A stretch of DNA of 64,000 bases from Fibrobacterota bacterium (GTDB lineage Bacteria; Fibrobacterota; Fibrobacteria; UBA5070): assembly GCA_029557215.1 (NCBI GenBank), contig JAKPQQ010000222.1, forward strand, positions 18,481-82,480, in the 5' to 3' direction. The notes under the pieces were generated by a model that did not search any database, had not been told where the DNA came from, and was given only the letters and a program-made list of their open reading frames with translations. Below, in pieces: positions 1,978 through 60,548 of the stretch. Each line of letters starts with the position of its first letter. Within the stretch, counting starts at the first letter, position 1. Both the position numbers and the translations under genes were made by a program.

Positions 1978-7368
<5,391 letters not shown>

Positions 7369-20578: not shown

Positions 20579-20712
20579 GACAGAGCGCCCCGAGCGTACC
20601 CTAGGCAACCCATGCCCCCGGGGAATGGGCAAAGCCCGCCACTCGACTCGAGTCGCGTTCATAGGATGAGGGCCGATCGGGGTTGGCACGGCCATCGCAA
20701 ACGTATCCAGCC

Positions 20713-21462: not shown

Positions 21463-21474
21463 GGAGAATAAGCC

Positions 21475-24610: not shown

Positions 24611-24831
24611 TTTTTTGGCCATGCCGGTCGATTCGAGGTTCCCGCTGCGAGGCAGGCATCCTCTAGGCGACCAGGTCCCGGCCGAGACGAAAAGGTTTAT
24701 CAGGTCAAAGCACAAGTTACCGGAAGCGAACAAGCCCGGAAGGGAAGATACATCCGAACCCCGCCGGAAGGAAATCGGGAATTCCGGCCGCGATTGCGGA
24801 AAGGGCTCGTCGAGTGGTACGATCTGGCACC

Positions 24832-26070: not shown

Positions 26071-26903
26071 AGCTGGCCGGGAACGAATTCGAACTTCTCA
26101 AGGGCTTCGTGGAGAAGCACTGCGGAATCCACCTGGAGCCCGGGAAGGAATACCTGATCGAGACCCGGCTCACGGACATCGCGATCGAGCACGAATGCAG
26201 GTCGTTCTTCGAGTTCTACCAGAAGGCGCTGGCCGACACCACCGGCAAGCTGCGCAACCGGATCGTCGACGCGATGACCACCAACGAGACCTACTTCTTC
26301 CGCGACGACAACCTCTGGACGTACATGAAGGAGGTCGCGGTCCCCGCGCTCCTGAAGAAGGCCGCGACGGGACCCGTGAGGGTCTGGTCGGCCGCGGCGT
26401 CCACCGGCCAGGAGGCGTACTCCATGGCGATGCTCTTCGACGAACTCGCCCGCGCCCAGGGAACCCCTTCCCTCTCGGGAAACCTCGAGATCCTGGGGAC
26501 CGACATCAGCTCGGCGGCGCTGTTCCTCGCCATCTCGGGGCGATACGATTCGCTCGCGATCCGGAGAGGACTGTCCGAGGAGCGACGACGCAGGTATTTC
26601 CAGGAGCACGGATCGGTCTGGGCGATCTCCGACGAGATCAAGTCGCGGGTCAAATTCCGTCGATTCAACCTCATGGATCCCTTCGCCCCGCTGGGGACGT
26701 TCGACCTGGTCCTGTGCCGCTACGTGGCGATCTACTTCCAGGACGACTTCAAGAAGGACATATTCCGGCGCATCGCCGGGGTCCTCAAGCCCGGCTGCCC
26801 GCTGCTGCTGGGGGCGACGGAGATCCTGCGGGACCTCAACGACGAATACGAACCCGTCCTCCACAAGAACTGCACCGCCTATGCGCGAAAGCCGGCGAGG
26901 TGA
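26067..26903 (+). CDS. cheR: Chemotaxis protein methyltransferase CheR
   Basis: 278 aa; ETYFFRD, VWSAAASTGQEAYS, CRYVAIYF motifs; ATGA overlap with cheB stop. Confidence 0.88.
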   Translation: MKLAGNEFELLKGFVEKHCGIHLEPGKEYLIETRLTDIAIEHECRSFFEFYQKALADTTGKLRNRIVDAMTTNETYFFRDDNLWTYMKEVAVPALLKKAATGPVRVWSAAASTGQEAYSMAMLFDELARAQGTPSLSGNLEILGTDISSAALFLAISGRYDSLAIRRGLSEERRRRYFQEHGSVWAISDEIKSRVKFRRFNLMDPFAPLGTFDLVLCRYVAIYFQDDFKKDIFRRIAGVLKPGCPLLLGATEILRDLNDEYEPVLHKNCTAYARKPAR

Positions 26904-26905
26904 CC

Positions 26906-27286
26906 ATGCGAATCCTCTCCATCGACGACTCGAACTCCATCCGGCACGCCGTGCGGAAGATGCTGGAAGTCATCGGCGCCGAATTCTTCGAGGGGCACGA
27001 CGGCCAGGAAGGGCTCGAGGTGCTCGAGAAGGAAGGTCCGGTCGACCTGATCCTGCTGGACATGGAGATGCCCCGCCTGGACGGGATGGGATTCCTGGAG
27101 GCGGTGAAGAAGGATCCCCGCTGGAAGGACATCCCCGTGATCGTGGTCTCCTCGATCGCCCAGAAGGAACGCATGATCCGCGCCGTCCAGGAAGGCGCCA
27201 AACAATACCTGACCAAACCGTTCACATCGGAGCAGCTCCTGACCAAGATCGTCGACGCCCTCCATCTCGACGGTGACGTCGAATGA
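26906..27286 (+). CDS. cheY: CheY-like single-domain response regulator
   Basis: 126 aa; DD..D..K receiver (ILSIDDS, LILLDMEMPRLDG, YLTKPF). Confidence 0.85.
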   Translation: MRILSIDDSNSIRHAVRKMLEVIGAEFFEGHDGQEGLEVLEKEGPVDLILLDMEMPRLDGMGFLEAVKKDPRWKDIPVIVVSSIAQKERMIRAVQEGAKQYLTKPFTSEQLLTKIVDALHLDGDVE

Positions 27287-28188
27287 CCCGCGCGGAGATC
27301 ATCCAGCGCCTGCAGGGCGACGTGAGCCTCCCGGCCCTGCCCGAGGTGCTCCTGCGCATCGACAGGATGCTCAAGGATCCGGAGGTCGACATCAAGGCCG
27401 TCTCGTCCCTCGCGTCCACCGACGCGGTCCTGTCGGGACAGATCATCCGGATGTCGAATTCCGCCTACTACGCCAGGGGCGGCTCCCACCTGACCTCCCT
27501 GCAGCCCGCGATCCAGCGCATGGGCCTGCGCGCGCTCCGAGGGCTGGTCTTCGCCCTGACGCTGCCCAGGATGTTCCACGACGACGGCGAAAGCTTCCCC
27601 TACAGGGCGCTCTGGAAGCACTCCCTGGCGGTGTCCGCGTTCGCCGCCGAGCTCGCGACGGAAATCGGCGCATCGCCGGCCGAGCGCGAGAACGCCTGGC
27701 TCGGCGGACTGGTCCACGACATCGGGGCGCTCGTCCTGGCCACGCTCCAACCCCGCGAATACCACCGTTTCCTGCAGGACCTCCAGGAACGCTCCGACCG
27801 GTCGGCCCAGTGGAACGAGCAGGAGCTTCCCGACTGGGAGCGCGAGACGTTCGGGATCGACCATGCCGAAATCGGCTGCATCTTCCTGCGCGAACGATGG
27901 CGCCTGCCCGAACCGATCCCGGAAATCACGCGGCTGCACCACAGCCTCGGATGGAACGAACCCTTGCCGGAAGGCGTCGAACGAAGCACCATCCTTGTCG
28001 TGCATGTCGCCAACGGAATCTGCTCGCACTACGGGATCGGCTGGAATCCGGCGGAACAGGAAGGCCGCGCCTTCCAGGAATCCGCCTGGGAAAGCCTCGG
28101 GCTCGACCTGGACCGGGTCGAAGAACTCCTGGAAAAGGCCAAGACCAGCCTCGGCATCGCGGAAACACTACTGAGCGAAGGAGAATGA
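27283..28188 (+). CDS. HDOD-domain signalling protein
   Basis: 301 aa; LPALPEVLLRIDRMLKDPEVD...GLVHDIGALVL pattern of the HDOD family; ATGA overlap with cheY. Confidence 0.75.
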   Translation: MTRAEIIQRLQGDVSLPALPEVLLRIDRMLKDPEVDIKAVSSLASTDAVLSGQIIRMSNSAYYARGGSHLTSLQPAIQRMGLRALRGLVFALTLPRMFHDDGESFPYRALWKHSLAVSAFAAELATEIGASPAERENAWLGGLVHDIGALVLATLQPREYHRFLQDLQERSDRSAQWNEQELPDWERETFGIDHAEIGCIFLRERWRLPEPIPEITRLHHSLGWNEPLPEGVERSTILVVHVANGICSHYGIGWNPAEQEGRAFQESAWESLGLDLDRVEELLEKAKTSLGIAETLLSEGE

Positions 28189-28532
28189 CCATGGACGCAT
28201 CCCTGCCCGTCCTGAGTCGAGACGAAGCCCTCGGGCGCCTGGAAGGCGACGTGGAGCTGTGGAACGAGATCCGGGACATCTGGCTCGAAGACGTGGCGAA
28301 CCTGATGGAAGGCGTCTCGAGAGCGCTGGAATCCGGCGTGCCCGACGCCCTCCGCCGCGCGGCCCACGCCCTGAAGGGGGCTTCGGCGAACGTCGGGGCC
28401 ACCCGCGTCGCGGCCCTCGCCAAGACGATCGAACTGGATGCGACCTCGGCGGATTGGGACGCCCTCCGCGAGGGCGTGGACCGGCTCCGCCGGGAAGTGG
28501 AGGACGCCCGGAGACAGCTGGAGACCGCATGA
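28185..28532 (+). CDS. Stand-alone Hpt phosphotransfer protein
   Basis: 115 aa; AAHALKGASANVGA phosphorylatable His motif; SD gaaggag; ATGA overlap. Confidence 0.7.
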   Translation: MTMDASLPVLSRDEALGRLEGDVELWNEIRDIWLEDVANLMEGVSRALESGVPDALRRAAHALKGASANVGATRVAALAKTIELDATSADWDALREGVDRLRREVEDARRQLETA

Positions 28533-29650
28533 ACAACCGCGACCCCAGGCAACCGCGGGTTCTGGTGGTCGACGACGAACGACAGAACCTGCAGATGCTT
28601 TCGGTGGTCCTGCGCAACGAAGGATATCTGGTCGACACGGCGGATTCCGGCGAGGCCGCGCTCGAGCGCGCGCGGTCCACCACCCCGGACCTCGTCCTCC
28701 TGGACATCCTGATGCCCGGGATGGACGGATTCGCCACCCTGGAACGGCTCAAGGGGATCGCGGGCGCATCGACGATTCCCGTCATCTTCCTGAGCGGCCT
28801 GGAAGACCTCGAAACCAAGCTCAAGGGCTTCTCGCTGGGCGCGGTGGACTACGTGACCAAGCCGTTCCACATCGAGGAGGTCCGCGCGCGCGTGCGGATC
28901 CACCTGCAACTGGCCCTGGCGCGCCAATCCCTGGTCCTGGAACAGGCATCCCGCCTCCGGAGCCTGGCCAGCGCCCAGAAGAGGCTGCAGGTCCTTCCGT
29001 CGGATCTTCCCGAGGCGAACTTCTCGGTGCTGTACGAATCCGCCCAGGAAGCCGGAGGCGACATCTACGACGTGCTCGCCGTCGGGAAAGGCATCCACGG
29101 GTTCCTCGTGGCGGACGTTTCCGGACACGACGTGGGCACGAGCCTGCTCGCGAGCGCCGCCAGGGCCCTGTTCCGGCAGAACACCGGACCCATGTACTCC
29201 CCCGAGGAGACGTTCAACCTGGTCAACCGCGTCCTCGCCGGCTGGCTGCCTCCCGGACGTTTCCTGACCGCATGCTACGCCCTGCTCAACCGCAACACGG
29301 GCAGGCTCTCGGTGGTCGGGGCGGCCCATCCTCCCGCGGCCATCCTGGACGCGTCGGGCAAGGCCCGCAGCCTGGACGTGGAAGGCGACGTGCTGGGCGC
29401 ATTCCCCGACGCGCGGTTCGGCCGGATCGACACCCGCGTCTCGAAAGGGGACCGCGTGGTCCTCTACACCGACGGCCTCGTCGAGAACATCGGCGGCGGC
29501 AGGACGTGGAACACCGAGGGGGATCGCGTCCTGCGCGAGCTCGAACGGCTCTCCGACGTCCCGCTCGGGGAGCTTCCCTCGCGCCTGTCGGCCGGACTTT
29601 CCGACGGCACGAGGGACGACGACGTGTTAGCGCTTGCTTTCGAGGTGTGA
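28529..29650 (+). CDS. Response regulator fused to PP2C/SpoIIE-type phosphatase (RsbU-like)
   Basis: 373 aa; REC (VLVVDDE..LLDILMPGMDG..KPF) then PP2C block (GGDIYDV, GFLVADVSGHDVGTS, LYTDGLVE). Confidence 0.8.
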   Translation: MNNRDPRQPRVLVVDDERQNLQMLSVVLRNEGYLVDTADSGEAALERARSTTPDLVLLDILMPGMDGFATLERLKGIAGASTIPVIFLSGLEDLETKLKGFSLGAVDYVTKPFHIEEVRARVRIHLQLALARQSLVLEQASRLRSLASAQKRLQVLPSDLPEANFSVLYESAQEAGGDIYDVLAVGKGIHGFLVADVSGHDVGTSLLASAARALFRQNTGPMYSPEETFNLVNRVLAGWLPPGRFLTACYALLNRNTGRLSVVGAAHPPAAILDASGKARSLDVEGDVLGAFPDARFGRIDTRVSKGDRVVLYTDGLVENIGGGRTWNTEGDRVLRELERLSDVPLGELPSRLSAGLSDGTRDDDVLALAFEV

Positions 29651-29693
29651 AGGCGGGACACTATCCCTCGCAACAAGTCGATGGAGGAGCCGA

Positions 29694-29990
29694 ATGATCC
29701 GGTCCCAGAGCGCGGGTGGAAAAACCAGCGTGGCGCCCGAAGGCAACGTCGGAACGCAGGAAGCCGAGCAGCTCGCGAAGGCCATGGAGGACGCGATCGC
29801 GCAAGGCGACGAAGTCGCCGTGGACCTTTCCGCCTGCCAGGCCCTCTCCTCGTCGGCGATCGGGGCCATGATCGCCTGCCACAACGCGCTTCGCGCCAAG
29901 GGATCCAGGCTCCGCGTGCACGGAACCGGCGAAGAGATCCTGCGGCTGCTGCGGATCATGCAGCTCGACCGCCATTTCGACATGGCCTGA
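29694..29990 (+). CDS. STAS-domain anti-sigma-factor antagonist (SpoIIAA/RsbV-like)
   Basis: 98 aa; SD ggagga; VAVDLSACQALSSSAIGAMIACHNALRAKGSRLRVHG. Confidence 0.75.
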   Translation: MIRSQSAGGKTSVAPEGNVGTQEAEQLAKAMEDAIAQGDEVAVDLSACQALSSSAIGAMIACHNALRAKGSRLRVHGTGEEILRLLRIMQLDRHFDMA

Positions 29991-29999
29991 GGAGGCGAG

Positions 30000-32900
30000 A
30001 TGCCCGCGATGGAAATCGACGAAACCCTGCAACTGTTCCTCGAGGAGGCGCGCGACCACCTGCGCGACATCGAGACGGATCTGCTCGCGATCGAGACGGA
30101 AACCGGCCCCGCCGACGTGGATCTGGTCAACAAGGTCTTCCGCGGCATCCACTCCATCAAGGGTGCGGCCGGGTTCTTCGGACTGAACCGGATCAAGGAG
30201 CTCTCCCACTCCATGGAGAACCTCCTGAACCGCATCCGCAACCTGGAGGTGGTTCCCGGCCGGACGGCCATCGAGGCCCTCCTGAAGTCGGCGGACGTCC
30301 TCAGTTCGATGGTGGAGGATCCCTCGCGAAGCGAAGACGTCGAGATCGGACGCCTGCTGGAACTCCTGCGCGACGCCAACGCGACGCGCTCCAAGGCATC
30401 CGCGACGGTCGACATCCCCGATCCCCAGGGACGCGTGATCTTCCGCATCCCGGAAGACGACCTCGAACTGGCCCGCAAGGGCGGGAAGAACCTCTTCGTG
30501 ATGTTCTTCGACATGGTCAAGGACATCGACGCCAAGGGGATGCATCCGCTGGGCCTGGTGAAGGAACTGGAGAAGACAGGCCTGATCGTCGAATCGCGCG
30601 TGGCCCACGACGCCGACGGGAACCTCCTGGGCGATGCGGGGTTCGTCCCGTTCCACGTGTTCTACGCGACCGTGCTCGACCACGAGATGACCTGCCTTCT
30701 CACCGGACTCCCCCCGTCCAGCGTGGTGGCCTTCGACGGAGAGCGCAAACCCGTCGCGGCCGGAAAGCTCGTCGCGGCCGCGAAGAAGGCCGCGCCGAAA
30801 CCTTCCAAACGCGCCAGCCAGGCGGCTCCGCCGCCGGAACGGAAGACCGCGCCATCCACTCCGGTCGCGGATCCCGTCGTGACGGAATCCGACAAACCGG
30901 AACCGGAGGCGATCCCGGCCGGGGCGACGCCGCGGGGCGCGGCGCAGGGGAACACCTCGCCGTCGTCGCTTCGCGTGAACGTGAAGTCGCTGGATCGCCT
31001 GATGACCCTGGCCGGCGAACTCGTCCTTTCCAGGAACCAGCTGGTCCAGAAGGTGGGCTCGAAGAACATCGCCGAGATCCAGGCCAGCTCCCAGGGCCTG
31101 TCCCTCATCATCTCCGAGCTGCAGGAGGCGGTGATGAGCACGCGCATGCAGCCGCTCTCGATGGTGTTCGGGAAGTTCCAGCGCGTCGTGCGGGATCTCG
31201 CCCAGGACCTCGGCAAGGAGATCCGCCTGGAAGTGGAAGGCGAGGACGTCGAACTCGACAAGGCGGTCATCGAATCGATCGGCGACCCGTTGACGCATCT
31301 TGTCCGCAACGCCGTGGACCACGGCATCGAGATGCCGGAGATCCGGGAACGCTCGGGCAAGCCCCGCCAGGCCGTGGTCAAGCTCCACGCCTACCACGAG
31401 GCGGGCAAGGTGGTGATCGACGTCTCCGACGACGGACGCGGCATCGACACCGACGCGGTGCGGGAAAAGGCCGCCGCGCAGAAGCTCGTGGACCCGCAGC
31501 ACCTGGCGAACATGACCGAGAAGGAGCTGGTCAACCTGATCTTCCTTCCGGGATTCTCCACCGCGAAGGTCGTCACCGACATCTCCGGACGCGGCGTCGG
31601 GATGGACGTCGTCAAGACCAACTTCACCAAGCTCGGCGGCGTCATCGACATCGAAAGCCGCCAAGGCCGGGGAACCAGGATCCGCGTCAAGCTCCCGCTC
31701 ACGCTGGCCATCATCCCGAGCCTTCTGGTTTCGGTCCAGGACGAGACCTACGCGATCCCGCAGGTGAACCTGGTGGAGCTGGTGCGCATCCCGGCCAAAG
31801 ACGTGCGCAACCGGATCGAGCGGATCGGGGACGCGCTCGTCATGCGACTCCGCGGCCACCTGCTCCCGCTGCTGAAGCTCTCGCAGGTGCTGGGGATCGC
31901 GACCCCCACCTTCGTCCACCCCGAATCCGGGGAACAGAAACCGGACCGGCGCACGCGCGTCGACGACCGGCGCGGCCCCCGGGAACGCGAGACTCCGGAA
32001 GAAAAGGAACGCCGCCGCAACGCGGACCGACGCTACCACTCCGAGAGCGCGATCAACATCGCGGTCCTGTCGGCCGGGACGTTCCAGTACGGACTGATCG
32101 TGGACCGCCTCCACGAGTCGGAAGAGATCGTCGTGAAACCGCTGGGAAGCCACTTCCGCAACTGTTCCTGCTACGCCGGAGCCACCATCCTGGGCGACGG
32201 CCGGGTCTCGCTGATCCTGGACGTGGTCGGCGTCACCCGGTACATGAACCTGTCGGACGTGGCCGGATCGGACAGGAGCCGCGACGAGGAGTCGAGGCAC
32301 AGACAGAAACTGCGCGACGCGCAGTCGATGCTGCTGTTCCGCGTCGCCGAACACGAGCAGTTCGCGGTCCCGCTCTCGCTGGTCTCGCGGCTGGAGGTGA
32401 TCCCGCGCGCATCCATCGAGAAGATCGGCGGCCGCAGGACCATCCAGTACCGAGGCGGCAGCCTGCCGCTGCTGGAACTGTCGGAGGTGTCGCAGGTGCA
32501 CCCCCTCCCCGACCAGGACGAGTACTTCGTGGTGGTCTACGCGGTGGGCGGCAAGGAAGTGGGCCTGATCGTGTCGCGGATCGTCGACATCGTCGAAGCC
32601 TCGGTGGAGTTCGACGAGTCCACGTTCGCGCAACCCGGGATCATCGGATCGACGATCCTGTCGAACCACACCACGCTCCTGGTGGATCTCTACGACGTGG
32701 TCAAGACCAGCCTCCCCGGCCTGGTCAAGGCGCCGGAGCTGGACGCGGGAAGGACCGGAAAGGTCCTCGTGGTCGACGATTCGCCGTTCTACAGGCGCCA
32801 GATCGCGGGATACCTCAAGGAGTGCGGGCTCGAGGTGGTCGAAGCCGTCAACGGCGACGAGGCGCTCGCCCTGCTGGAAACGACCGGCGGGATCGGGCTC

Positions 32901-33131
32901 GTCCTCACCGACGTGGAAATGCCCGTCATGGACGGACTGGAACTGACCCGGCGCGTCCGTTCCATCGAGTCCCTGCGCCACCTCCCCGTGGTGGCCATCA
33001 CCTCGCTGTCCGGGGAAGAGGCCGAACGCCGCGGGCGCGAGGCGGGGGTCGACGGCTACCTGGTCAAGCTCGACCGCGAAAAGATCCTCGCCGAAGTCGA
33101 AAAACTCCTCCTGCGCAGGGGGCACCGATGA
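30000..33131 (+). CDS. cheA: Chemotaxis histidine kinase CheA with two CheW-like domains and a C-terminal receiver (CheA-CheY hybrid)
   Basis: 1043 aa; P1 Hpt (FRGIHSIKGAAGFFG), P3/P4 (HLVRNAVDHGIE, DDGRGID, GRGVGMDVVK), two CheW-like blocks, REC (VLVVDDSPFYRR..TDVEMPVMDG). Confidence 0.9.
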   Translation: MPAMEIDETLQLFLEEARDHLRDIETDLLAIETETGPADVDLVNKVFRGIHSIKGAAGFFGLNRIKELSHSMENLLNRIRNLEVVPGRTAIEALLKSADVLSSMVEDPSRSEDVEIGRLLELLRDANATRSKASATVDIPDPQGRVIFRIPEDDLELARKGGKNLFVMFFDMVKDIDAKGMHPLGLVKELEKTGLIVESRVAHDADGNLLGDAGFVPFHVFYATVLDHEMTCLLTGLPPSSVVAFDGERKPVAAGKLVAAAKKAAPKPSKRASQAAPPPERKTAPSTPVADPVVTESDKPEPEAIPAGATPRGAAQGNTSPSSLRVNVKSLDRLMTLAGELVLSRNQLVQKVGSKNIAEIQASSQGLSLIISELQEAVMSTRMQPLSMVFGKFQRVVRDLAQDLGKEIRLEVEGEDVELDKAVIESIGDPLTHLVRNAVDHGIEMPEIRERSGKPRQAVVKLHAYHEAGKVVIDVSDDGRGIDTDAVREKAAAQKLVDPQHLANMTEKELVNLIFLPGFSTAKVVTDISGRGVGMDVVKTNFTKLGGVIDIESRQGRGTRIRVKLPLTLAIIPSLLVSVQDETYAIPQVNLVELVRIPAKDVRNRIERIGDALVMRLRGHLLPLLKLSQVLGIATPTFVHPESGEQKPDRRTRVDDRRGPRERETPEEKERRRNADRRYHSESAINIAVLSAGTFQYGLIVDRLHESEEIVVKPLGSHFRNCSCYAGATILGDGRVSLILDVVGVTRYMNLSDVAGSDRSRDEESRHRQKLRDAQSMLLFRVAEHEQFAVPLSLVSRLEVIPRASIEKIGGRRTIQYRGGSLPLLELSEVSQVHPLPDQDEYFVVVYAVGGKEVGLIVSRIVDIVEASVEFDESTFAQPGIIGSTILSNHTTLLVDLYDVVKTSLPGLVKAPELDAGRTGKVLVVDDSPFYRRQIAGYLKECGLEVVEAVNGDEALALLETTGGIGLVLTDVEMPVMDGLELTRRVRSIESLRHLPVVAITSLSGEEAERRGREAGVDGYLVKLDREKILAEVEKLLLRRGHR

Positions 33132-33583
33132 CCCAGACGGAAACCGTCGCGAACACCGACAACCTGGAACTCACCGTCTTTTCCGTGGGCGACCTGCTCT
33201 GCGCGCTGCCGAACTCCTCGGTGCGCGAGATCTCGGGATTGCGGTCGATCACCAAGGTCCACCACGCGGCCCCGCAGGTCCGCGGGGTGGTGAACCTTCG
33301 AGGACAGATCATGACCGTCCTGGACCTGGGGATCCGGTTCGGGATCGGCCCGGTTCCCGAAGACCGCAAGGCGCGCATCCTCGTGGTGCGGTCGGGCGAA
33401 GAGGACATCGGGCTTCTCGTGGACGGGGTCGACGACGTGATGAACGCGCCGCGGACCGACCTGGAGCCGCCGCCTTCGAACGTCGGAGGCATTTCGGGAA
33501 GCTACTTCCGGGCGATCCTCAAGAACCGCGACGACCTGGTCTGCCTCCTGGACCTGGACCGGATCCTGTCCGACGGCGACTGA
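33128..33583 (+). CDS. cheW: Chemotaxis coupling protein CheW
   Basis: 151 aa; LTVFSVGDLLCALPNSSVREI..VVNLRGQIMTVLDL; ATGA overlap with cheA. Confidence 0.85.
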   Translation: MTQTETVANTDNLELTVFSVGDLLCALPNSSVREISGLRSITKVHHAAPQVRGVVNLRGQIMTVLDLGIRFGIGPVPEDRKARILVVRSGEEDIGLLVDGVDDVMNAPRTDLEPPPSNVGGISGSYFRAILKNRDDLVCLLDLDRILSDGD

Positions 33584-33604: not shown

Positions 33605-34498
33605 TCAATCCGGACAAGCGACTCCGGTCGGCGGGGAAGGCGCTCGCAGGAAGCGCACGCCGCCCTTCGGGACCTCGCTCTTCGCCTGGTCCGCCCGCGA
33701 CAACAGCCGGTCGCCACCTTCGCCACCGGAATACGTCGTGACGCCGATCGACACGGGAAGTTCCATCCCCGACCGCGCGAAGCCTTCCCGCAGGGCCCGC
33801 TCCACCACGTCCACGCGCTCCTGCGCCGCGCGCTCGTCGGCCCCGAGCCAGAGGATCACGAACTCGCCTTCCCCCCAGCGAAAAAGCCAATCCGAAGGTT
33901 TCGCGCACCCCTGGATCAGGGTCGCGGCCTGGCGCAGCGCTTCGTCGACGGCGACCTTCCCGAAATCGACTCGCATCTTGCGCAGCCCCCCGATTTCCAC
34001 CACGGACAAGGACAGGGGATCCCCGTAGCGATCGCACCTCTGGGATTCGGATTCCAGGGTTTCGGCCAGCAGGAGGCGGTTTCCCACTCCCGTGAGCGTG
34101 TCGGTCCGGGATTGCATCTCGAGTTCCCGATTGCGCTTGCGCAGCACCGACTGGATCTCCTGCAACTCCTGGACGGCCTCCGCGCCGCGCAGAAGTTCGC
34201 GTTCGAGCAGATGGACCCGGCGCAGGCCCAGGCCGCAGATGCACAGCAGCACAACCACGGCGACCTCGAGGACGATCCCGACCGGACCGTGCGACCGGGA
34301 CGCGTCGCCGAACAAGGACGATGCGAGATGGACGACCAGCCCGCCCAGGATCAGCGCAAGGATCGACCATGCGGCGATCCGGGCGACCGAGCGATGCCAA
34401 CGACGCCCTTCGACGCCGGGGTCGAGCGAGCGATCGTTCTCCGTCGCGGAACGCGACAGGCCGGGAACGTTCCGATGGATTTCCAGCACGACATCCAT
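33605..34498 (-). CDS. Membrane-anchored GGDEF diguanylate cyclase
   Basis: 297 aa from internal ATG (M67); TM segments then GGDEF-related RWGEGEFVIL and upstream DTLTGVGNR. Confidence 0.7.
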   Translation of the reverse strand: MDVVLEIHRNVPGLSRSATENDRSLDPGVEGRRWHRSVARIAAWSILALILGGLVVHLASSLFGDASRSHGPVGIVLEVAVVVLLCICGLGLRRVHLLERELLRGAEAVQELQEIQSVLRKRNRELEMQSRTDTLTGVGNRLLLAETLESESQRCDRYGDPLSLSVVEIGGLRKMRVDFGKVAVDEALRQAATLIQGCAKPSDWLFRWGEGEFVILWLGADERAAQERVDVVERALREGFARSGMELPVSIGVTTYSGGEGGDRLLSRADQAKSEVPKGGVRFLRAPSPPTGVACPD

Positions 34499-34589: not shown

Positions 34590-35846
34590 TCAAGGCTTCC
34601 GGAACGCCTCCACCATGGCCCCCAGCTCCGTCCCCAGGCGGGAGAGGACTTCGGACTGCTCGCCGACGAGTCTGGCGTCGCTTTCGATGACCGCAAGCGG
34701 CGCCTGCAATTCGCCGATCACCGATGTCGTTTCGGACAGCTTCAGACCGGATTCGGTGACGACCTCCGAAATCGTGGCGGCCTGTTCGTCCACGAACTTG
34801 ACGTTGGCGGAGATCTCTGCGATGGTTCCTGTCTGCTTGCGGACGCGCTCCTCGATCCCGCGCGACATCCGGTCGACTTCGTCGACCTTCCCGCTGATCC
34901 TCTGCATCGCGTCCACCGCAGAACGCGTGGCCGCCTGGATCGACACCACCATGTCCCGGATCTTCTCGGTGGAACGCGCGGTCTGGCTGGAAAGCTCCTT
35001 GACTTCCCCGGCCACGACGGCGAATCCCTTCCCGGCCTCGCCGGCCCTCGCCGCTTCGATGGTGGCGTTCAAGGCCAACAACCGCGTCCGCGCGGCGATC
35101 GCCTGGATTTCGGAAAGGATCCCTCCGATGGCTTCGGCCTCGCGGCTGAGTCCGACCATCACGTCCGTCGCCGCCCCGGCCTCCTCGCGCGCCTTGCCCG
35201 CCAACTGCACCTCGTCCACGCAGGTGCCGGCGACGTCGGTGAGCGAACGCGCGATCTCGTCGGCCGACGAGGAAAGCATCCCGATGCACGCCGACACGTC
35301 CTGCAGGGAACCCGAGATCCCCGCGAGATCGTTCGACGCCGTTCTCGTGGCCTCCATCACCTTCGCGGAAGTCCGCTCCATGGCCTCGATCTGCTCCGGC
35401 ATCCTGGCGGAAAAACCGGCCAGGTCGTTGGCGGCGGCGGTCAGCGGTTCCGCCCGACCGGCCAGAGGGTCGACCAGCGACTGGAGGCGCCCCATGACCG
35501 TGTTGAAATCGTTGGCGATGGCCACGATGTCGTCGTAGCCCTGGACCTCGATCCGGACCCCGATCCCTCCGCCGTCCGACGCCAGATGACGCAATCTGCC
35601 CGCAATGCCCTCGACGGGCGCCACGGCGCGCGCCACGAGCCTCCAGGTAACGAACCCCGCGAGCCCGGCCACCAGGAGGCTCCAGCCGAACCCCCGCCAG
35701 GACGCCCCCGCGAACAGGAGCACAGCCAGATCAGAAAGCACCAGTCCGGACAGCGCCGGGGCGAGCACGCGCCACCGGAGCCCGATCTTCCTCCGCTCGG
35801 CCTGGAGGCGGATCCACCGCGGATCCCTTTTCCACGACATCGACAT
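34590..35846 (-). CDS. mcp: Methyl-accepting chemotaxis protein (2 TM + HAMP + MA domain)
   Basis: 418 aa; SD ggagg; highly conserved MCP signalling hairpin RTRLLALNATIEAARAGEAGKGFAVVAGEVKELS. Confidence 0.8.
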   Translation of the reverse strand: MSMSWKRDPRWIRLQAERRKIGLRWRVLAPALSGLVLSDLAVLLFAGASWRGFGWSLLVAGLAGFVTWRLVARAVAPVEGIAGRLRHLASDGGGIGVRIEVQGYDDIVAIANDFNTVMGRLQSLVDPLAGRAEPLTAAANDLAGFSARMPEQIEAMERTSAKVMEATRTASNDLAGISGSLQDVSACIGMLSSSADEIARSLTDVAGTCVDEVQLAGKAREEAGAATDVMVGLSREAEAIGGILSEIQAIAARTRLLALNATIEAARAGEAGKGFAVVAGEVKELSSQTARSTEKIRDMVVSIQAATRSAVDAMQRISGKVDEVDRMSRGIEERVRKQTGTIAEISANVKFVDEQAATISEVVTESGLKLSETTSVIGELQAPLAVIESDARLVGEQSEVLSRLGTELGAMVEAFRKP

Positions 35847-35866: not shown

Positions 35867-38266
35867 TCAGGACGCGAAGCGGCTCGGCAATTGGATGATG
35901 GTCTTCGACCCCGATCCCGGCACGCTGGTCAGGCGCAAGGTGCCCCCTTGCGATTCCACGCACTCCTTCACTGCCGACATGCCCACGCCGCGACCCGACA
36001 CGTCGGAAACCGACGATGCGGTCGACACCCCCGCCTCGTAGACGAGCTGGATCTTCTCGTCGTCGGACATCCTGGCGATCTCGGCCGGAGTGGCGACGCC
36101 GTTTTCGACGGCCTTCCTCGCCACCGATTCGACGTTGATGCCTCCGCCGTCGTCGGAAAGCGTGACCGTGACCTGGTCGTCGTTGATCGCGACCTCCAGA
36201 CGGATGGTTCCCCGTTCCGGTTTGCCCTTGGCCGCCCGATCGGAAGGCGACTCGATGCCATGGTCCACGGAGTTCCGCAGCATGTGGATCAAGGCCTCGT
36301 CGATGGGATTGAAGAAATGCGGACTCAGCTCGAGATGGGTCGGAACGACCTCGAAGTGGATCTGCTTGCCCAGCCGCTCGGCCAGGCGCCCGATCATGCC
36401 GCGGTACTTGTCGGCCAGGCGCGCCAACGGCACGTCGCGAAGACGCTCGCAGGCCATCGCCAGGGTCTTGACCGCCTCGGAATCGGCCACCACGGCGCTT
36501 CCGGAATGCATCGCCAACGCCATCCGGCGGACATGCTCGATCTTGCGCTCGGAAATCTGGACCAGGGCGTCGCCCTCCCCACCGCCACCCGACAACCGTT
36601 TTTCCGTTTCCAGGATTTCCTGGTAGGCGGCGTCCATCTCCTCGAGACGTTCGGCCAACGCACCCAAGGTGACGGTGGTCCGCACGGTGATGGGTTCCTT
36701 CAGGTCTTCCAGCAGGTCCTCGCTGTGGTGGGCCAACCTGCCCAGCCGTTCGAATCCGTAGGTGCCCGCGTTGCCCTTGATCGTGTGCAGATCCCGGAAC
36801 AGGCGCCCGATGTCCTCGGGTGACGGCTTGAAACCGGGACCGTCGGGGAACTTCTCCCGCGCCGCCGTCGCGCGGTCGAGCATCGATTTGGCGAGGTCGG
36901 TGAGGTCGTCCAGACGCTTGCGGGCGTCCTTCTGGAAATCCTTGATGACCTCGGGCAGGTTGTTCACCAGGCCCAGGATGGTCTTCACCTCGTTCTCGTG
37001 GCGCTCCTTCTCTTCGGCGACCACGCGTTCGATGCGCCTCGCCTCGGTCTCGTCCTGCGCCAGGACCATGATCTTCTCGACGTCGCGGTTCTTGTCGTAC
37101 ATGCGCTGGTAGCGCACGCGCACGTAGCGGGTCTGGCCGTCGGCGCCCGGGATTTCCAGATCCTGCACCGGAGCGACCTTGGTCAGCTTGTCCCAGCGCA
37201 TGGCCGCGTGCTTGGAACGGACCAGGTTGAGCCAGCCCACGAAGTCCTCTTCCTGCGAAGGGCTCAGATGCAGGGCGTCGCGGATCGACTGGAGTTCGTT
37301 GACCCCGAGGATCTCAGGAGCGGCCTTGGAGTGTTCCGGACTGATGTTGCCGTCGAACCCCACGACGAACAATCCCTGCTCGACGTTGTCCAGGATGTCG
37401 CGCACCTGGCGCATCTTGGCTTCCACGAGCTCTTCCAGGTGCTCGGTGTAGGTCTGCACGGTCTGGCGCATCGTCTCGAAGGTGGACGCGAGCTCCCCGA
37501 TCTCGTCGTCGGAATGCACGACCACGGGCTGCTTGTAGTCGCCGTTCTTGATGATCTCCGCCGCCGCCGCCAGTTCGCGGATCGGACGCGACAGGTTCGC
37601 CGCCTCGCTTCCGAACTTGCGAAGCGAGATGAGCAGGGCTCCGGTTCCCAGCGCAACCAGGAGGACGATCACCAGCGCGGTCCCCTTGCGGCTGCCGTCC
37701 TTCGCGGCCTGGATCGCCTCGCGCATGGTCGCGGTGGACAACTTGTACAGGATCCATCCCATGGGCGCTTCGGGATCGCCCACCGGGGCCGCGAACTCGA
37801 GAAGTTCGTCGGACACCCCGACGGTCCTGCGCGACTCGATGGCCTCGAGGGAACGGGCCCACACGATCGCCGGATCCCCGAGTTCCTCGGCCTTCGCCAG
37901 GATGCCGGCCATGCGGACGGAATCCGTCTCGTCGGCCGTCGCCCAGGGCATGGAGGAATCCGCCATGATGAAGGTCCCGGACACCACGTCGATGTCGTCC
38001 TTCACGGTGGACGCCACCAGATCCTTGATCTGCATGAACGCGTTGCCTTCCGCCATCCCCACCAGCGCCTGGGCGTTGTTGGCGGTCAACAGCCTCCCCT
38101 TGGCCTTGAGGGACGATTCGATCCGCATCACGGTCTCGCGCTGCGTCTTCCCGCCGAGGAACACGTTGAGGATCACCACCGCCAACGTGACGAGCACGAA
38201 GGCGGGCACGAGAACCATCAGCGATGTCTTGACCAGTTTTCCCTGGATTGTCGTTCGCGCGGCCAT
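35867..38266 (-). CDS. Membrane-bound sensor with periplasmic domain, HAMP, PAS-like region, Hpt and CheA-type ATPase (P4) but no CheW-like P5 domain
   Basis: 799 aa; SD ggagga; TM1 LMVLVPAFVLVTLAVVIL, TM2 ALVIVLLVALGTGALLI; Hpt motif FRDLHTIKGNAGTYGFERL; CheA P4 signature HMLRNSVDHGIE..DDGGGI..VSGRGVGMSAVKE; protein ends immediately after the ATPase. Confidence 0.75.
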   Translation of the reverse strand: MAARTTIQGKLVKTSLMVLVPAFVLVTLAVVILNVFLGGKTQRETVMRIESSLKAKGRLLTANNAQALVGMAEGNAFMQIKDLVASTVKDDIDVVSGTFIMADSSMPWATADETDSVRMAGILAKAEELGDPAIVWARSLEAIESRRTVGVSDELLEFAAPVGDPEAPMGWILYKLSTATMREAIQAAKDGSRKGTALVIVLLVALGTGALLISLRKFGSEAANLSRPIRELAAAAEIIKNGDYKQPVVVHSDDEIGELASTFETMRQTVQTYTEHLEELVEAKMRQVRDILDNVEQGLFVVGFDGNISPEHSKAAPEILGVNELQSIRDALHLSPSQEEDFVGWLNLVRSKHAAMRWDKLTKVAPVQDLEIPGADGQTRYVRVRYQRMYDKNRDVEKIMVLAQDETEARRIERVVAEEKERHENEVKTILGLVNNLPEVIKDFQKDARKRLDDLTDLAKSMLDRATAAREKFPDGPGFKPSPEDIGRLFRDLHTIKGNAGTYGFERLGRLAHHSEDLLEDLKEPITVRTTVTLGALAERLEEMDAAYQEILETEKRLSGGGGEGDALVQISERKIEHVRRMALAMHSGSAVVADSEAVKTLAMACERLRDVPLARLADKYRGMIGRLAERLGKQIHFEVVPTHLELSPHFFNPIDEALIHMLRNSVDHGIESPSDRAAKGKPERGTIRLEVAINDDQVTVTLSDDGGGINVESVARKAVENGVATPAEIARMSDDEKIQLVYEAGVSTASSVSDVSGRGVGMSAVKECVESQGGTLRLTSVPGSGSKTIIQLPSRFAS

Positions 38267-38302: not shown

Positions 38303-39277
38303 CTACTCGAGAACCTTGTCGACTTCGCCCAGCTTGTCCTGCTGGACTCCGCAGCACGACTTCATGCCGCGGAGGTTCAGGGTCTTGATCACCGACAACG
38401 GCTGGTCGACCTTGGGATCCTCGACCTTCCAGCCCGCGTCCTCGATCTCCTGGACCAGCCCCGCGGCCTGCGCCCCGAGGGCGTAGTTGTCGGGAAGCAC
38501 CGCGAACGTCCCGAACTTGAGCTCGGGCTTCACGAGGCTTTCCACGCCCACCACGACCGGATGCTTCCAACCGGAAAGCCGGGGCAGCCAGACCTCCTTG
38601 ACCAGTTTCGCGTTGAGGAAGAAATTGTCGTTGATCACCAGGAGCACGTCGATGTCGGAACGCTTGGTCAGTTCCTTCAGGGCGTCGTTGAGCGCGGATT
38701 TGGCGTCGGCGTCGTCCGGAACCCTGATCCCCACGATCTCCACGTTCTCCTGGGCGCAGAATTCGGCGTTCTTGCGGATCATGTCGTCCATGGACGCCCT
38801 GTGGACCACGCCGATCTTCTTGATCGGATTGGACAGGAGCGAACGCAGGTTCACGATCGTCGTCACCGCCGGGATCTCGTAGTTGATCCCCACGACGTTC
38901 TGCACGTCCCGGATGGTCGCGTCGATCCGCACCCCCATGAGGGCGACTCCCGGCGTGACGGAATCCGACATCTTGACGCGGGCGTCCTTGAACAGCGCGA
39001 CACCGCGGTTGTCCATGGCGACCACGACCTTGGGTGCGGCCTCCTTCCAGGCCTTCTGCACTTCTTCGACGGAGGTTTCCTTGGTGACGACGAGCCCCTT
39101 GAGGTCGTATCCGTCGCCGAGCGTCTCCTGGATGCCCTTCTTGGCGTCGTCGAACGACGGGCCGGCCGGGTGCAGCACGAGGATCCGTTTCGATTCATCC
39201 TGGCCGAAGGCCGCCGCGCCCAGGAAAGCCGTGGCGACCGCGACGATCCAGGTCGGTGCGTGTTTCACTTGATCCAT
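38303..39277 (-). CDS. Periplasmic solute-binding-like protein (ABC-type uncharacterised transport system periplasmic component, COG2984-like)
   Basis: 324 aa; signal peptide MDQVKHAPTWIVAVATAFLGAAAFGQ; alpha/beta SBP-like fold signature. Confidence 0.55.
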   Translation of the reverse strand: MDQVKHAPTWIVAVATAFLGAAAFGQDESKRILVLHPAGPSFDDAKKGIQETLGDGYDLKGLVVTKETSVEEVQKAWKEAAPKVVVAMDNRGVALFKDARVKMSDSVTPGVALMGVRIDATIRDVQNVVGINYEIPAVTTIVNLRSLLSNPIKKIGVVHRASMDDMIRKNAEFCAQENVEIVGIRVPDDADAKSALNDALKELTKRSDIDVLLVINDNFFLNAKLVKEVWLPRLSGWKHPVVVGVESLVKPELKFGTFAVLPDNYALGAQAAGLVQEIEDAGWKVEDPKVDQPLSVIKTLNLRGMKSCCGVQQDKLGEVDKVLE

Positions 39278-39951
39278 GAGTCCACCCCCAGCATCTTCTT
39301 CTCGGCGGTACCGAGCGTCTTGAGCGCGGCTTCCAGCTTCGAGGCGTCGCCCTTGGCCGATGCGACCAGCAAGCCGATCTTGCCGTTGGCCACGTCGGTG
39401 GTCTGGAGCGCGGCCTGCGAACGTCCCTTGATCTCGTCGACCTGCCCTTCGCCCACCAGGATCGCGTCGGCCGACCCGAAGGTCAGGAGCGGAAGCAGGT
39501 CCTCCACCTTGGTCACGATCTTGAGCTTGGGCTGCGATCCCACCACGCTCTTGACGTAGCCGTTCATGGCGGGGCGTTCCAATACGCCCACCACGCCCAC
39601 GTTCGCCGTGGCCAGCGCGTCGGCCACCACCGGTTTGGTGGAGATCAGCACAGCCGGCTCCAAGGCGCCGCCGTTGCGGGCCCCCTTCAGGAAGACCTTG
39701 AAGTCCGGGAACTGCTCGGCCAGGGCCTTCGGGGCGAGGATCGCGTCGGGCGGGGTCTGCTTGATCATCGTGGTGAAATCGGCGAGGCGTCCGAACACCG
39801 TCACTTCGTGGCCGGACAGCTTCGCCTGGAGCGCGGCCTGGACCACGTTCGGCTTGGCCATGCTCGGGAAGAACACGTAGATCTTGTCCGCCGAGGTCTG
39901 GGCGGCGAGGAACGCCGCGGCAAGCCAGGGTACGGCTCGATGGAGTTTCAT
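39265..39951 (-). CDS. Periplasmic binding-protein-like protein (PhnD/SsuA-like)
   Basis: 228 aa; signal peptide MKLHRAVPWLAAAFLAAQTSA; overlaps the downstream SBP gene by 13 nt. Confidence 0.5.
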   Translation of the reverse strand: MKLHRAVPWLAAAFLAAQTSADKIYVFFPSMAKPNVVQAALQAKLSGHEVTVFGRLADFTTMIKQTPPDAILAPKALAEQFPDFKVFLKGARNGGALEPAVLISTKPVVADALATANVGVVGVLERPAMNGYVKSVVGSQPKLKIVTKVEDLLPLLTFGSADAILVGEGQVDEIKGRSQAALQTTDVANGKIGLLVASAKGDASKLEAALKTLGTAEKKMLGVDSWIK

Positions 39952-42094: not shown

Positions 42095-42475
42095 TCAGTT
42101 GAAGACTTCGTCGACCGATTGCTTGAAGTCTTCCACGAACAGGGGGTCGGAGAACTTGAGGGGTTTTTCCACGTAGCCCTTGGCGCCGCGGTTCAGGCAT
42201 TCCAGCACCGTGTTCCCCTTGACCGCCGAGATGACCATGATCCGCGCGTCGGCGAACTCGGTGAGGATCTCGTTGATCGCGGTCTTGCCGTCCTTGTTGG
42301 GCATGGTGAGGTCCATGGTGACAAGATCCGGCTTGTGCTTGCGGTAGAGATCCACTGCCTCGTTGCCGTCCTTGCCGATCGCCACGACCTGGAAACCCAG
42401 TTGGGAGGTGAAGAACTCGGCGATCTGCTTCGACAGGAAGCTGGAATCGTCCACGATCAGGACCGTCTTGGGCAT
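42095..42475 (-). CDS. CheY-like single-domain response regulator
   Basis: 126 aa from ATG M8 (SD aggagg); VLIVDDS..LVTMDLTMPNKDG..GYVEKPL. Confidence 0.85.
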   Translation of the reverse strand: MPKTVLIVDDSSFLSKQIAEFFTSQLGFQVVAIGKDGNEAVDLYRKHKPDLVTMDLTMPNKDGKTAINEILTEFADARIMVISAVKGNTVLECLNRGAKGYVEKPLKFSDPLFVEDFKQSVDEVFN

Positions 42476-42594
42476 TGTTCCTCCTTCGGGCCGCACGGGC
42501 GCACAACTAGAGAGTCTGGATGATCCTACCGCTTGAAATCGAGGGAAGTCAAGGGGTAAGATGTCCGAAGCATCGCCTTTTCCTGGAGGACGGG

Positions 42595-43083
42595 ATGGAC
42601 ATCGACATCGGAGAACTGCTCACCACCATGCGCGCGAAAGCCTGCGAAGCGTTCAGCAGCGTGCTCCAGATCGAGCTCGTTCCGGAAGAGCCGTGGAACA
42701 TCGTGAACCGAGTGGAGAACCCGTGCGATTTCGGCGCCACCGTGGGCTTCGCCAACGAGGCGTGGCAGGGGGCGTGCACCCTGGGCGTCTCCAGCGCCGA
42801 CGCCGCGATCCTCTTCCCCAACCTGGACGAGGACATGCTCTTCGACGCGCTCGGCGAGATCGGCAACACCGTCTGCGGACTTCTGTCCGCAGACCCGCAG
42901 TTCACCGCCCTGTACGGAATCCTGGAGCAGACCCCGCCGCTGTTTTCGCGAGGCGGCGCCTGGCTCGCGCGATCCACCGGAGTCCAGGGGAAGCTCGCCC
43001 TGGGCGAGGCGCGCGTCATCTTCGGATGCACCGTGCGCACCACCGGACCGCGCCGGAACATGGTGGGTTCGCAACCGCGCTGA
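42595..43083 (+). CDS. cheX: CheX-family chemotaxis phosphatase-like protein
   Basis: 162 aa from ATG M26 (SD ggagga); DIDIGELLTTMRAKACEAFSSVLQIEL..GATVGFANEAWQGACTL resembles CheC/CheX. Confidence 0.6.
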   Translation: MDIDIGELLTTMRAKACEAFSSVLQIELVPEEPWNIVNRVENPCDFGATVGFANEAWQGACTLGVSSADAAILFPNLDEDMLFDALGEIGNTVCGLLSADPQFTALYGILEQTPPLFSRGGAWLARSTGVQGKLALGEARVIFGCTVRTTGPRRNMVGSQPR

Positions 43084-49643: not shown

Positions 49644-49648
49644 TGGAA

Positions 49649-53929: not shown

Positions 53930-54046
53930 ACGTTGTGTAAGCCACCGGAACTCCGGGGATTCCATCCTTGGATGAATCCGGAGGCTTGCGAAAGAAGGGC
54001 GGCAAGGACGCTGCCTGGATCGGGATCCACGCAAGGAGGATGTGTC

Positions 54047-54916: not shown

Positions 54917-54923
54917 GGAAGAC

Positions 54924-58126: not shown

Positions 58127-60548
<2,422 letters not shown>

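Follow-up and report, generated by a model that had tools for sequence, protein, structure and literature searches.

A P5-less, sensor-fused CheA-type kinase encoded next to CheY in a Fibrobacterota bacterium

The 64,000-nucleotide stretch of DNA analysed here (the window; positions 18,481 to 82,480 of contig JAKPQQ010000222.1, assembly GCA_029557215.1, from a Fibrobacterota bacterium) carries a gene, which we call KIN, whose product is a chimera of a standard transmembrane sensor module and the P1-P3-P4 core of the chemotaxis kinase CheA. From the N-terminus, the chain consists of a first transmembrane (TM) helix, an sCache-like periplasmic domain, a second TM helix, HAMP, a PAS-like domain, an Hpt/P1 domain with His494, a P3-like hairpin and a CheA-type P4, and it ends four residues past the last P4 strand, at the P4/P5 border. 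KIN is one member of a broad family of P5-less, sensor-fused CheA-type kinases. We propose that it would signal to the adjacent CheY without a chemoreceptor array, and we give the predicted kinase-to-CheY core of this scheme a probability of about 0.65, with the sensing and output steps rated lower. A first-pass annotation, made from the sequence without database searches, had described a membrane-anchored CheA-type kinase here; the open reading frame (ORF) that it gave in forward-strand coordinates is real, but it is read from the minus strand, with a GGAGGA ribosome-binding site a few bases 5' of the ATG.

The transmitter of KIN is of the CheA type. In an NCBIfam scan, two CheA models are by far the best matches (residues 609-798, 2.9e-61 and 5.9e-41), and the models of classical sensor kinases, WalK first, cover the N-terminal part only, to about residue 450 at most. 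The Pfam scan recovers HAMP, Hpt and HATPase_c, the three domains that had been predicted, with no match to CheW (PF01584), H-kinase_dim, HisKA or Response_reg at E ≤ 1, and the two motifs quoted by the first-pass annotation, IHMLRNSVDHGIE and SGRGVGM, are both found. A profile-profile comparison (hhalign) of 33 KIN orthologues with 15 canonical CheAs yields one co-linear alignment (probability 100, E = 7e-65), in which P1 falls on P1, the CheA P2/linker is skipped, and P3 and P4 are aligned up to LPLTLA, the motif at the P4/P5 border. By BLASTP, KIN shares 34% identity over P3-P4 with the window's own CheA (30000-33131), and there is a separate second match around the phospho-acceptor histidine. 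Within P1, H494, T495, K497, G498 and E516 are invariant in the 33 orthologues, as is the stretch HTIKGN, and the same holds for the ATP boxes (H661/R664/N665/G670, D705/G707/G709 and S757/G758/G760/G762). P1 carries the His/Lys/Glu constellation of CheA; the spacing of H494, K497, H513 and E516 equals that of H48, K51, H67 and E70 in E. coli CheA.

The AlphaFold2 model of KIN, built from the 33-orthologue alignment (mean predicted local distance difference test, pLDDT, 81.9), has H494 on the second helix of the Hpt bundle, followed by a low-confidence Gly-rich linker (562-567), two hairpin helices (573-588 and 597-632) and an alpha/beta P4 (636-794). The tether from P1 to P3 is only about 14 residues long. 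Foldseek searches of the PDB match this part of the model to the P3P4 structure of Thermotoga maritima CheA (4xiv; E = 2e-17, template modelling score 0.64-0.65, ~247 columns) and to many CheA P4 structures (scores 0.82-0.90, 35-39% identity). The combination of Hpt and CheA-type P4, rather than HisKA, is what had been proposed, and indeed no HisKA or dimerization and histidine phosphotransfer (DHp) domain is found in any of the 33 orthologues at E ≤ 0.05, nor is P5 (CheW) or a receiver, in agreement with the claim that KIN lacks both of the latter. What precedes P4 in KIN aligns to P3 of CheA, a domain without a phospho-acceptor His, and the Hpt stands after the sensor modules and not at the N-terminus of the chain. 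A HisKA kinase with a C-terminal Hpt was considered and rejected.

The P3-like hairpin is an addition to the first-pass annotation. The profile comparison puts LVQISERKIEHVRRMALAM on the start of CheA P3, and Pfam H-kinase_dim (PF02895) has no match in KIN, in the 33 orthologues or in 65 more diverse relatives. According to a 2023 survey of CheA architectures, HMMER often misses P3 (PMC10782961). We treat P3 as present but short in KIN, with a putative dimerizing role.

In its N-terminal half, KIN is built as a standard transmembrane sensor. Two TM segments are evident from hydropathy, as had been stated, and their boundaries were read against the orthologue alignment; with these boundaries, the periplasmic domain measures about 158 residues and not the ~170 estimated earlier. 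In the model, this domain begins with a long helix and continues as a beta-sheet with inserted helices at 94-177, and weak sCache_3_2 matches occur in 11 of the 33 orthologues (best 7e-5) and also in orthologues from Beggiatoa and Desulfococcaceae. The PAS-like region that had been suspected is borne out by a weak PAS_4 match at 365-411, by similar weak matches in 17 of the 33 orthologues, and by the PAS fold order 2-beta/4-alpha/3-beta in the model. This PAS-like domain is common to KIN, its paralogue KIN2 (see below) and the whole P5-less family, and a model helix (407-435) links it almost directly to the first Hpt helix (438-472). With the whole KIN chain as query, the best Foldseek match is WalK (9a5d_A; E = 1e-24, full length), a kinase composed of a TM helix, an extracellular PAS-like domain, a second TM helix, HAMP and PAS.

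The layout of KIN is conserved well beyond this genome. A word-indexed search returned 87 relatives, about 70 of which are full-length orthologues of 785-815 amino acids, down to 30% identity; all of these carry HAMP, Hpt and HATPase_c, and none carries CheW. Their hosts, where the sources name them, are Fibrobacterota, and the labels in the source databases are CheA, signal transduction histidine kinase and HAMP domain-containing protein. If KIN were a decayed CheA, left without function by a 3' truncation or by a chimeric contig, this layout would not be expected to recur in independent assemblies from several phyla, and with identities of 30-90% the orthologues are not assembly copies of one another. 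Only the unusual architecture itself speaks for such an artefact; the catalytic residues are all invariant, more than 100 clusters at 50% identity contain the P5-less core, and the GC content at third codon positions (GC3) of the KIN ORF is 0.87 as in the neighbouring genes; at the 66% GC of the window, GC3 did not distinguish genes from ORFs on the antisense strand. We regard truncation and misassembly as excluded by this conservation, with a probability close to nil.

For a wider view of the family, residues 280-799 were used as an HMMER query against 1.84 billion cluster representatives, which gave 39,144 matches, mostly to CheA P4 domains. The 150 HMMER matches listed and the 87 word-search relatives together provided 230 sequences. 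The whole PAS-Hpt-P3-P4 core is matched by 159 of the 230, and about 148 of these 159 end no more than 28 residues past P4; canonical CheAs, in contrast, match over P4 only and run on for another ~140 or ~285 residues. The regions N-terminal to the core range from none (soluble proteins of ~500-540 amino acids) to more than 1,500 residues. Among the 65 relatives picked for N-termini unlike the KIN periplasmic domain, a Pfam scan found HATPase_c in 65, Hpt in 64, HAMP in 33, dCache_1 in seven, CHASE4 in three, Peripla_BP, cNMP_binding and Response_reg in two each, GAF, sCache_3_2 and CheX in one each, and CheW in none (0/65).

A taxon survey with one genome per GTDB species places full-length orthologues in Fibrobacteria, Chitinispirillaceae, Chitinivibrionales, Desulfobacterales, Candidatus Parabeggiatoa and Candidatus Halobeggiatoa, and relatives that share the core only in Myxococcota (including the cultured Labilithrix luteola), Bdellovibrionota, Bacillota, Planctomycetota and Acidoferrales. 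The P5-less relative in L. luteola DSM 27648 (NZ_CP012333, at about 1.51 Mb) has no HAMP match, and the genomes that matched for the full module were metagenome-assembled ones, with no cultured Chitinivibrionia strain among them. Several metagenome-assembled genomes hold two or three paralogues (for example loci L011/L017/L025, L008/L027, L024/L043 and L039/L048), and such numbers in single Fibrobacterota genomes point to an enlarged set of receptor-kinases whose signals may meet at one CheY. Two paralogues of other composition were seen with binding protein genes upstream. At L005 (6419-11376), a dCache_1-HAMP-Hpt-P4 protein of 875 amino acids has an SBP_bac_1 gene upstream and a CheX gene downstream; at L006 (7175-10757), the gene for a HAMP-GAF-Hpt-P4 protein of 918 amino acids lies downstream of an SBP_bac_3 gene, and its surroundings (leuS-lptE-holA) look proteobacterial. 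Neither locus has a CheY of its own within 8 kb.

In a neighbour-joining tree of the P3-P4 region from 125 P5-less and 38 canonical sequences, the latter biased to the best matches of the query, the two groups are not cleanly separated. The largest pure P5-less clade contains 75 sequences, and 36 of the 38 canonical sequences in this biased sample share a clade with 40 P5-less ones. We found no description of a P5-less or sensor-fused CheA in the open-access literature, and mention elsewhere is possible.

The gene neighbourhood of KIN is conserved as well. On the minus strand of the window, the genes are tightly packed in the order cheY, KIN2, PBP2, PBP1, KIN and the gene for a methyl-accepting chemotaxis protein (MCP). 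Synteny was assessed by tblastn and ORF clustering at 45 loci with a near-full-length orthologue, and the counts refer to the 28 of these with at least 4 kb on both flanks. CheY lies next to the kinase at all 28 (27 by clustering, and L010 by tblastn), with 50-94% identity; PBP1 and a CheX-like gene are each present at 24 of the 28, and PBP2 at 21 or more. The order varies (CheY-PBP2-PBP1-KIN; KIN-CheX-CheY-PBP2-PBP1; or PBP2-PBP1-KIN with CheY and CheX opposite), and the hosts of the module among these loci are Fibrobacterota, Desulfobacterales and Beggiatoa relatives. No other gene family is conserved at the 28 loci, and ABC permeases and ATPases, MCP and CheW are all absent from the module. 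Further ORF clusters that first appeared conserved were rejected as antisense shadows of the kinase gene. That KIN bypasses the MCP-CheW-CheA complex, as the first-pass annotation had proposed, is something we also infer, and the synteny of a module with CheY, CheX and two predicted periplasmic binding proteins (PBPs), lacking MCP and CheW, backs it.

Table 1. Positions in the window of KIN, its domains and the neighbouring genes
Feature	Position	Strand	Evidence or remarks
MCP	34590..35846	-	MCPsignal 5.7e-30, HAMP, TM segments 27-51 and 58-76
KIN, sensor kinase	35867..38266	-	ATG at 38266, stop 35867-35869, 799 aa; CheA-type P1-P3-P4, without P5
KIN: CheA-type P4, residues 636-795	35882..36361	-	HATPase_c 658-795, 3e-15; Foldseek
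KIN: Gly-rich linker and short P3-like hairpin, residues 568-632	36371..36565	-	hhalign, model, Foldseek
KIN: Hpt/P1 four-helix bundle, residues 438-558	36593..36955	-	His494 codon 36785-36787; Pfam Hpt 439-543, 3.5e-12
KIN: cytoplasmic PAS-like domain, residues 298-405	37052..37375	-	model, weak PAS_4
KIN: HAMP, residues 223-271	37454..37600	-	Pfam PF00672 1.5e-16; 33/33 orthologues
KIN: TM2, residues 196-215	37622..37681	-	hydropathy segment 193-219; unbroken model helix 179-240
KIN: periplasmic sensor, residues 38-195, sCache/PDC-like	37682..38155	-	model, weak sCache_3_2 in orthologues, Foldseek
KIN: TM1, residues 15-37	38156..38224	-	hydropathy segment 9-42; model helix
PBP1, secreted, divergent ABC_sub_bind (PF04392) member	38303..39277	-	family profile search
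PBP2, secreted, type II (Venus flytrap) PBP fold	39265..39951	-	AlphaFold2 model and Foldseek
KIN2, soluble paralogue without P5	39948..42071	-	CheX, PAS-like, Hpt, P3, P4
CheY, single-domain response regulator	42095..42475	-	Response_reg 2.6e-21; putative phospho-acceptor Asp55
Promoter-like hexamer pairs, divergent	42523..42562	.	cheY/cheX-like gap; weak, consensus-only match
CheX-like protein	42595..43083	+	divergent to cheY; weak Pfam CheX; motif intact

The CheY that had been named as the phosphotransfer partner is a genuine response regulator, and the CheY and CheB-receiver models top its NCBIfam matches. Divergent to its gene lies that of the CheX-like protein, which the first-pass annotation had missed along with KIN2. 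The protein scores 18.4 bits against the Pfam CheX model, whose gathering cut-off is 27, and no other family competes for it; 6 of the 22 CheX-like orthologues match Pfam CheX (best 5.7e-7). The active-site motif of CheC/CheX/FliY phosphatases, which we take to be D/S-x3-E-x2-N-x22-P, is intact in the window protein, which reads DALGEIGNTVCGLLSADPQFTALYGILEQTPP (D-x3-E-x2-N-x22-P), and G87, E88, N91 and P115 are invariant among the 22 orthologues. From these residues, the CheX-like protein is likely to be a phosphatase of phosphorylated CheY (CheY~P). At one locus (L044, 7983-10862, Desulfococcaceae bacterium HSG8), the kinase and the CheX-like protein form one unbroken ORF of 959 amino acids that keeps the CheX motif (DALGEFTN...FPP), a natural link of both functions in a draft genome where a sequencing error is possible. 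When the 10-kb region was scanned with a promoter consensus, two sites were found against 0.7 expected, both of them in the gap between cheY and the CheX-like gene.

The two adjacent genes that had been called periplasmic binding proteins are supported indirectly, PBP1 through PF04392 in distant relatives and PBP2 through its type II fold. Searched as single sequences, neither has a match in Pfam, NCBIfam or the PDB (phmmer). A family profile of PBP1 reaches PF04392 proteins named ABC transporter substrate binding protein at ~1e-90. Those PF04392 proteins whose structures are solved bind Trp, Tyr and Phe (PMC10443332), which makes aromatic amino acids a first candidate for the ligand of PBP1. 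Against PDB sequences, the profiles of both families give non-significant matches only (E 0.04-0.5) to the right kind of protein, and the four weak matches of PBP1 are all PF04392-type proteins. For PBP2, the AlphaFold2 model (pLDDT 91.1) is matched by Foldseek, among others, to 7t1m, to the second Venus flytrap domain (VFT2) of BvgS (3mpl) and to PtxB (5lq1), with E between 1e-10 and 1e-9 and template modelling scores of ~0.6-0.66. Both N-termini are hydrophobic and signal-like, and we predict from profiles and model that PBP1 and PBP2 are periplasmic solute-binding proteins. In some other members of the family, SBP_bac_1 or SBP_bac_3 genes lie directly upstream of the kinase. Stimulation by solute-binding proteins is known for both sensor kinases and chemoreceptors (PMC10443332), and PBP1 and PBP2, whose module holds no transporter, would report their ligand to the sCache-like domain.

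KIN2 is a soluble paralogue with 28% identity to KIN over 560 amino acids, and it matches Pfam CheX (1.4e-6), Hpt (2.7e-7) and HATPase_c (8e-16) as well as NCBIfam CheA (1e-49). Of the phosphatase motif, the E-x2-N part is retained in the CheX domain of KIN2, so that KIN2 may be kinase and phosphatase in one. The presence of two paralogous P1-P3-P4 proteins in one operon raises the question of whether KIN is autonomous, since the two might form a hetero-oligomer or phosphorelay in which P1 is phosphorylated in trans, or the Hpt of KIN might mainly shuttle phosphate. There is a precedent in the bipartite CheA3/CheA4 of Rhodobacter sphaeroides (PMC10782961), and the CheX domain of KIN2 does suggest mixed kinase and phosphatase roles. 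Yet P1 and P4 of KIN are both intact with invariant ATP boxes, and KIN2 occurs in only seven related loci (L007, L008, L010, L013, L014, L039 and L053), so it is not an obligate partner of the family. We consider such dependence on KIN2 improbable and retain KIN as a kinase in its own right.

The gene for the MCP starts 20 nt after the KIN stop codon. The two TM helices of this protein are ~6 residues apart, leaving essentially no periplasmic domain. It is conserved in the closest relatives (L007-L011), and beyond them the only match, of 26% identity, lies in L018, about 3 kb away from the kinase. We class the MCP as a lineage-specific add-on outside the conserved module, and as an obligate partner of KIN it was rejected on this distribution. 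KIN could nevertheless work inside an array, if it were recruited and controlled through some P5-independent contact by the MCP, whose gene follows directly in the operon, together with CheW and CheA from the neighbouring cluster, and if HAMP and PAS only fine-tuned its activity; a complete CheB/CheR/CheA/CheW cluster is indeed present at 24814-33583. Against this, KIN has no P5, through which CheA is coupled to CheW and to the receptors (PMC10782961), the module includes no CheW gene, KIN has a complete transmembrane sensor of its own, and almost all other loci lack the MCP while keeping CheY, CheX and the PBPs. We therefore judge work within an array very unlikely and continue with an array-independent KIN.

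The neighbouring cluster lies on the plus strand and is a complete canonical chemosensory system, with genes for CheB, CheR, CheY (about 26900-27286), an HDOD protein, a stand-alone Hpt, a REC-PP2C (SpoIIE) protein, CheA and CheW. Its CheA has 1043 amino acids and contains Hpt, H-kinase_dim, HATPase_c, three CheW-domain stretches matched by Pfam and a C-terminal receiver. The accessory genes of this cluster look like those of an alternative cellular function (ACF) system.

Combining these lines of evidence, we propose that KIN would act as a dimeric receptor-kinase of the inner membrane. PBP1 and PBP2 would bind ligand and dock on the periplasmic domain of KIN, which may also bind ligand itself. 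The signal would then pass through TM2, HAMP and the PAS-like domain, and along the long helix into helix A of the P1 bundle, where it would set the access of His494 to the ATP site of P4, with the short Gly-rich tether to P3 keeping P1 near. From P1, the phosphoryl group would move on to the adjacent CheY, at Asp55, and would be removed from CheY~P again by the CheX-like protein. In this organism, the soluble KIN2 would probably feed the same CheY from a cytoplasmic input. Such a scheme would need no MCP, CheW or methylation machinery. Autophosphorylation of KIN, transfer to CheY and CheX-like phosphatase activity are predictions from sequence, and so are PBP docking on the sensor, KIN dimerization and the output.

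Several observations weigh against this proposal. The full-length model of KIN has a predicted template modelling score of only 0.38, so the relative placement of the domains, and hence the idea that access to P1 is gated, is without support from the model. The first P3 helix is short (~16-20 residues) and H-kinase_dim is not matched, which means that the dimer interface may lie elsewhere. PBP1 is missing from four of the 28 well-flanked loci. The MCP gene in the same operon and the complete Che cluster 2.3 kb away make cross-talk possible. A system lacking methylation-based adaptation would be a poor sensor of temporal gradients, which weakens a reading in terms of chemotaxis. Finally, Beggiatoa relatives glide and are not known to have flagella, and their possession of the module argues against the flagellar switch as its universal target.

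The last of these points concerns the output of the pathway. The window encodes flagellar rod proteins (FlgF/FlgG-like; 20683-22263, plus strand) and flagellin (53933-54856, plus strand), which indicates that this high-GC Fibrobacterota bacterium is flagellated and makes the flagellar switch the most likely target here; we hold an action of CheY~P on that switch only tentatively, at somewhat less than even odds. A glycosyltransferase gene (54915-56480) directly follows the flagellin gene. Alternatively, the pathway as described up to CheY may be right and its output may lie outside flagellar motility, in gliding or pili, in cyclic di-GMP turnover or in a partner-switching cascade. The occurrence of the module in Candidatus Parabeggiatoa and Halobeggiatoa fits this alternative, as do the GGDEF-type gene that follows the MCP gene in the window and in L007 and L011, and the ACF-like accessories (REC-PP2C, HDOD and Hpt) of the neighbouring Che cluster. 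It is countered by the flagellin and rod genes of the same window, by the degenerate GGDEF motif (GEGEF), by a predicted CheX phosphatase, of a kind typical of fast motility signalling, and by the bare CheY-type receiver, in which, as we read the sequence, the Ser/Ala and Tyr switch positions are present. A non-motility output is thus possible, if rather unlikely, and it remains a serious alternative for the last step; the flagellar switch is the target that we prefer in this organism. The GGDEF protein (33605-34498, minus strand) is a membrane protein encoded downstream of the MCP; it has the signature GEGEF rather than GG[D/E]EF and is probably not an active cyclase, and its gene is conserved only in the two closest relatives, L007 and L011.

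More speculatively, the P5-less receptor-CheAs may be a separate, array-independent and so far unrecognised branch of chemosensory signalling, a doubtful generalization at this stage. One genome would then hold several paralogous sensor-kinases, each fitted with a periplasmic or cytoplasmic input and in many cases with dedicated PBPs, and all of them would phosphorylate one shared and highly conserved CheY, which a dedicated CheX would reset, and motility would be steered without MCPs, CheW or methylation-based adaptation. If this is true, CheA has been turned back into an ordinary sensor kinase while the fast CheY/CheX output was kept.

Elsewhere in the window, two UvrA-like ABC ATPases are encoded at 1978-7368 (plus strand) and 47211-50150 (minus strand). 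One of these ORFs is unusually long (1796 amino acids) and contains repeated ATPase modules as well as the interaction and DNA-binding domains of UvrA; it may be a duplicated or fused UvrA or else an over-extended ORF call in high-GC DNA. Other signalling genes lie at 7462-9765 (plus strand), 58116-60548, 11027-13534 and 14981-16651 (all minus strand), and the products of these four loci are two hybrid kinases of the HisKA type that carry receivers, a PAS-GGDEF-EAL protein and a Ser/Thr protein kinase.

The P5-less family breaks the textbook rule that CheA is without a sensor and is read out only through MCP-CheW arrays. Within this family, the catalytic core of CheA appears to have been joined time and again to sensor modules of ordinary kinds and to have given up array coupling. 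Chemosensory censuses that require P5 miss these kinases, and annotation pipelines call them either CheA or HAMP domain-containing protein. Should the mechanism be as proposed, KIN would offer a natural single-chain system for helical input control of the encounter between P1 and P4, which is hard to study inside large arrays, and the five-gene module is compact enough to be a defined target for reconstitution. It would also add a route from PBPs to CheY in Fibrobacterota, Desulfobacterales and Beggiatoa relatives, with the core present in Myxococcota and other phyla as well.

How KIN relates to known systems depends on how CheA is defined. The survey of CheA architectures by Berry, Andrianova and Zhulin (2023) covers 13,673 sequences (PMC10782961). 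It describes CheA as having no sensor (input) domain and a core of P1, P3, P4 and P5, with P5 in 100% of sequences, and the one place where it names HAMP is a paper title among its references (PMC10782961). CheAs were picked there by the pair HATPase_c and CheW, said to uniquely distinguish CheA homologs (PMC10782961), so that proteins like KIN are excluded by construction. Likewise, the chemosensory classes F1-F17, ACF and type IV pili (Tfp) rest on CheA P3-P4-P5 with co-encoded CheW and MCP (PMC10782961), and with no P5, KIN falls outside this scheme by construction. Thus, KIN is not a CheA by the definition of MiST and of the survey, because P5 is absent, and not a class I kinase, because HisKA is absent; by analogy, it would work like a sensor kinase built on a CheA engine.

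Compared with the canonical CheAs of E. coli, T. maritima and the window itself, KIN has the same P1 with His, Lys and Glu, a P3-like hairpin and a P4 with N, G1 and G2 boxes, and its gene is likewise neighboured by those of a stand-alone CheY and a predicted CheC/CheX-type phosphatase. It has no P2, as is the case in about half of all CheAs (PMC10782961). Unlike them, KIN lacks P5, brings its own TM sensor, HAMP and PAS, has its P1 joined to the input by a helix where the P1 of CheA sits on long flexible linkers, and belongs to a conserved module without MCP or CheW. The CheA3/CheA4 pair of R. sphaeroides and the CheA-CheC/CheX fusions of Leptospira are examples of rearrangement tolerated by the CheA core and of CheX domains fused to kinases of this type (PMC10782961), as in KIN2 and the L044 fusion. 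In contrast to KIN, these proteins keep P5, work in arrays and have no TM sensor or HAMP.

With WalK-type sensor kinases, KIN shares the succession of TM helix, PDC/Cache-like domain, TM helix, HAMP and PAS as well as a cognate regulator encoded next door. The adjacent PBP genes without a transporter recall those sensor kinases that have binding-protein partners, such as LuxQ/LuxP, TorS/TorT and VirA/ChvE. Unlike classical sensor kinases, which combine DHp (HisKA) with a catalytic and ATP-binding (CA) domain, KIN carries its histidine on a separate Hpt N-terminal to a CheA-type catalytic domain, and its putative partner is a bare CheY with a predicted CheX phosphatase rather than a transcription factor. 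Engineered CheA fragments from which P5 has been deleted (P1-P4, or P3P4 plus P1) consist of the domains that make up the C-terminal half of KIN; they keep basal autokinase activity and lose receptor coupling. KIN differs from these fragments in that it is natural and has sensor modules covalently attached in the place of receptor coupling.

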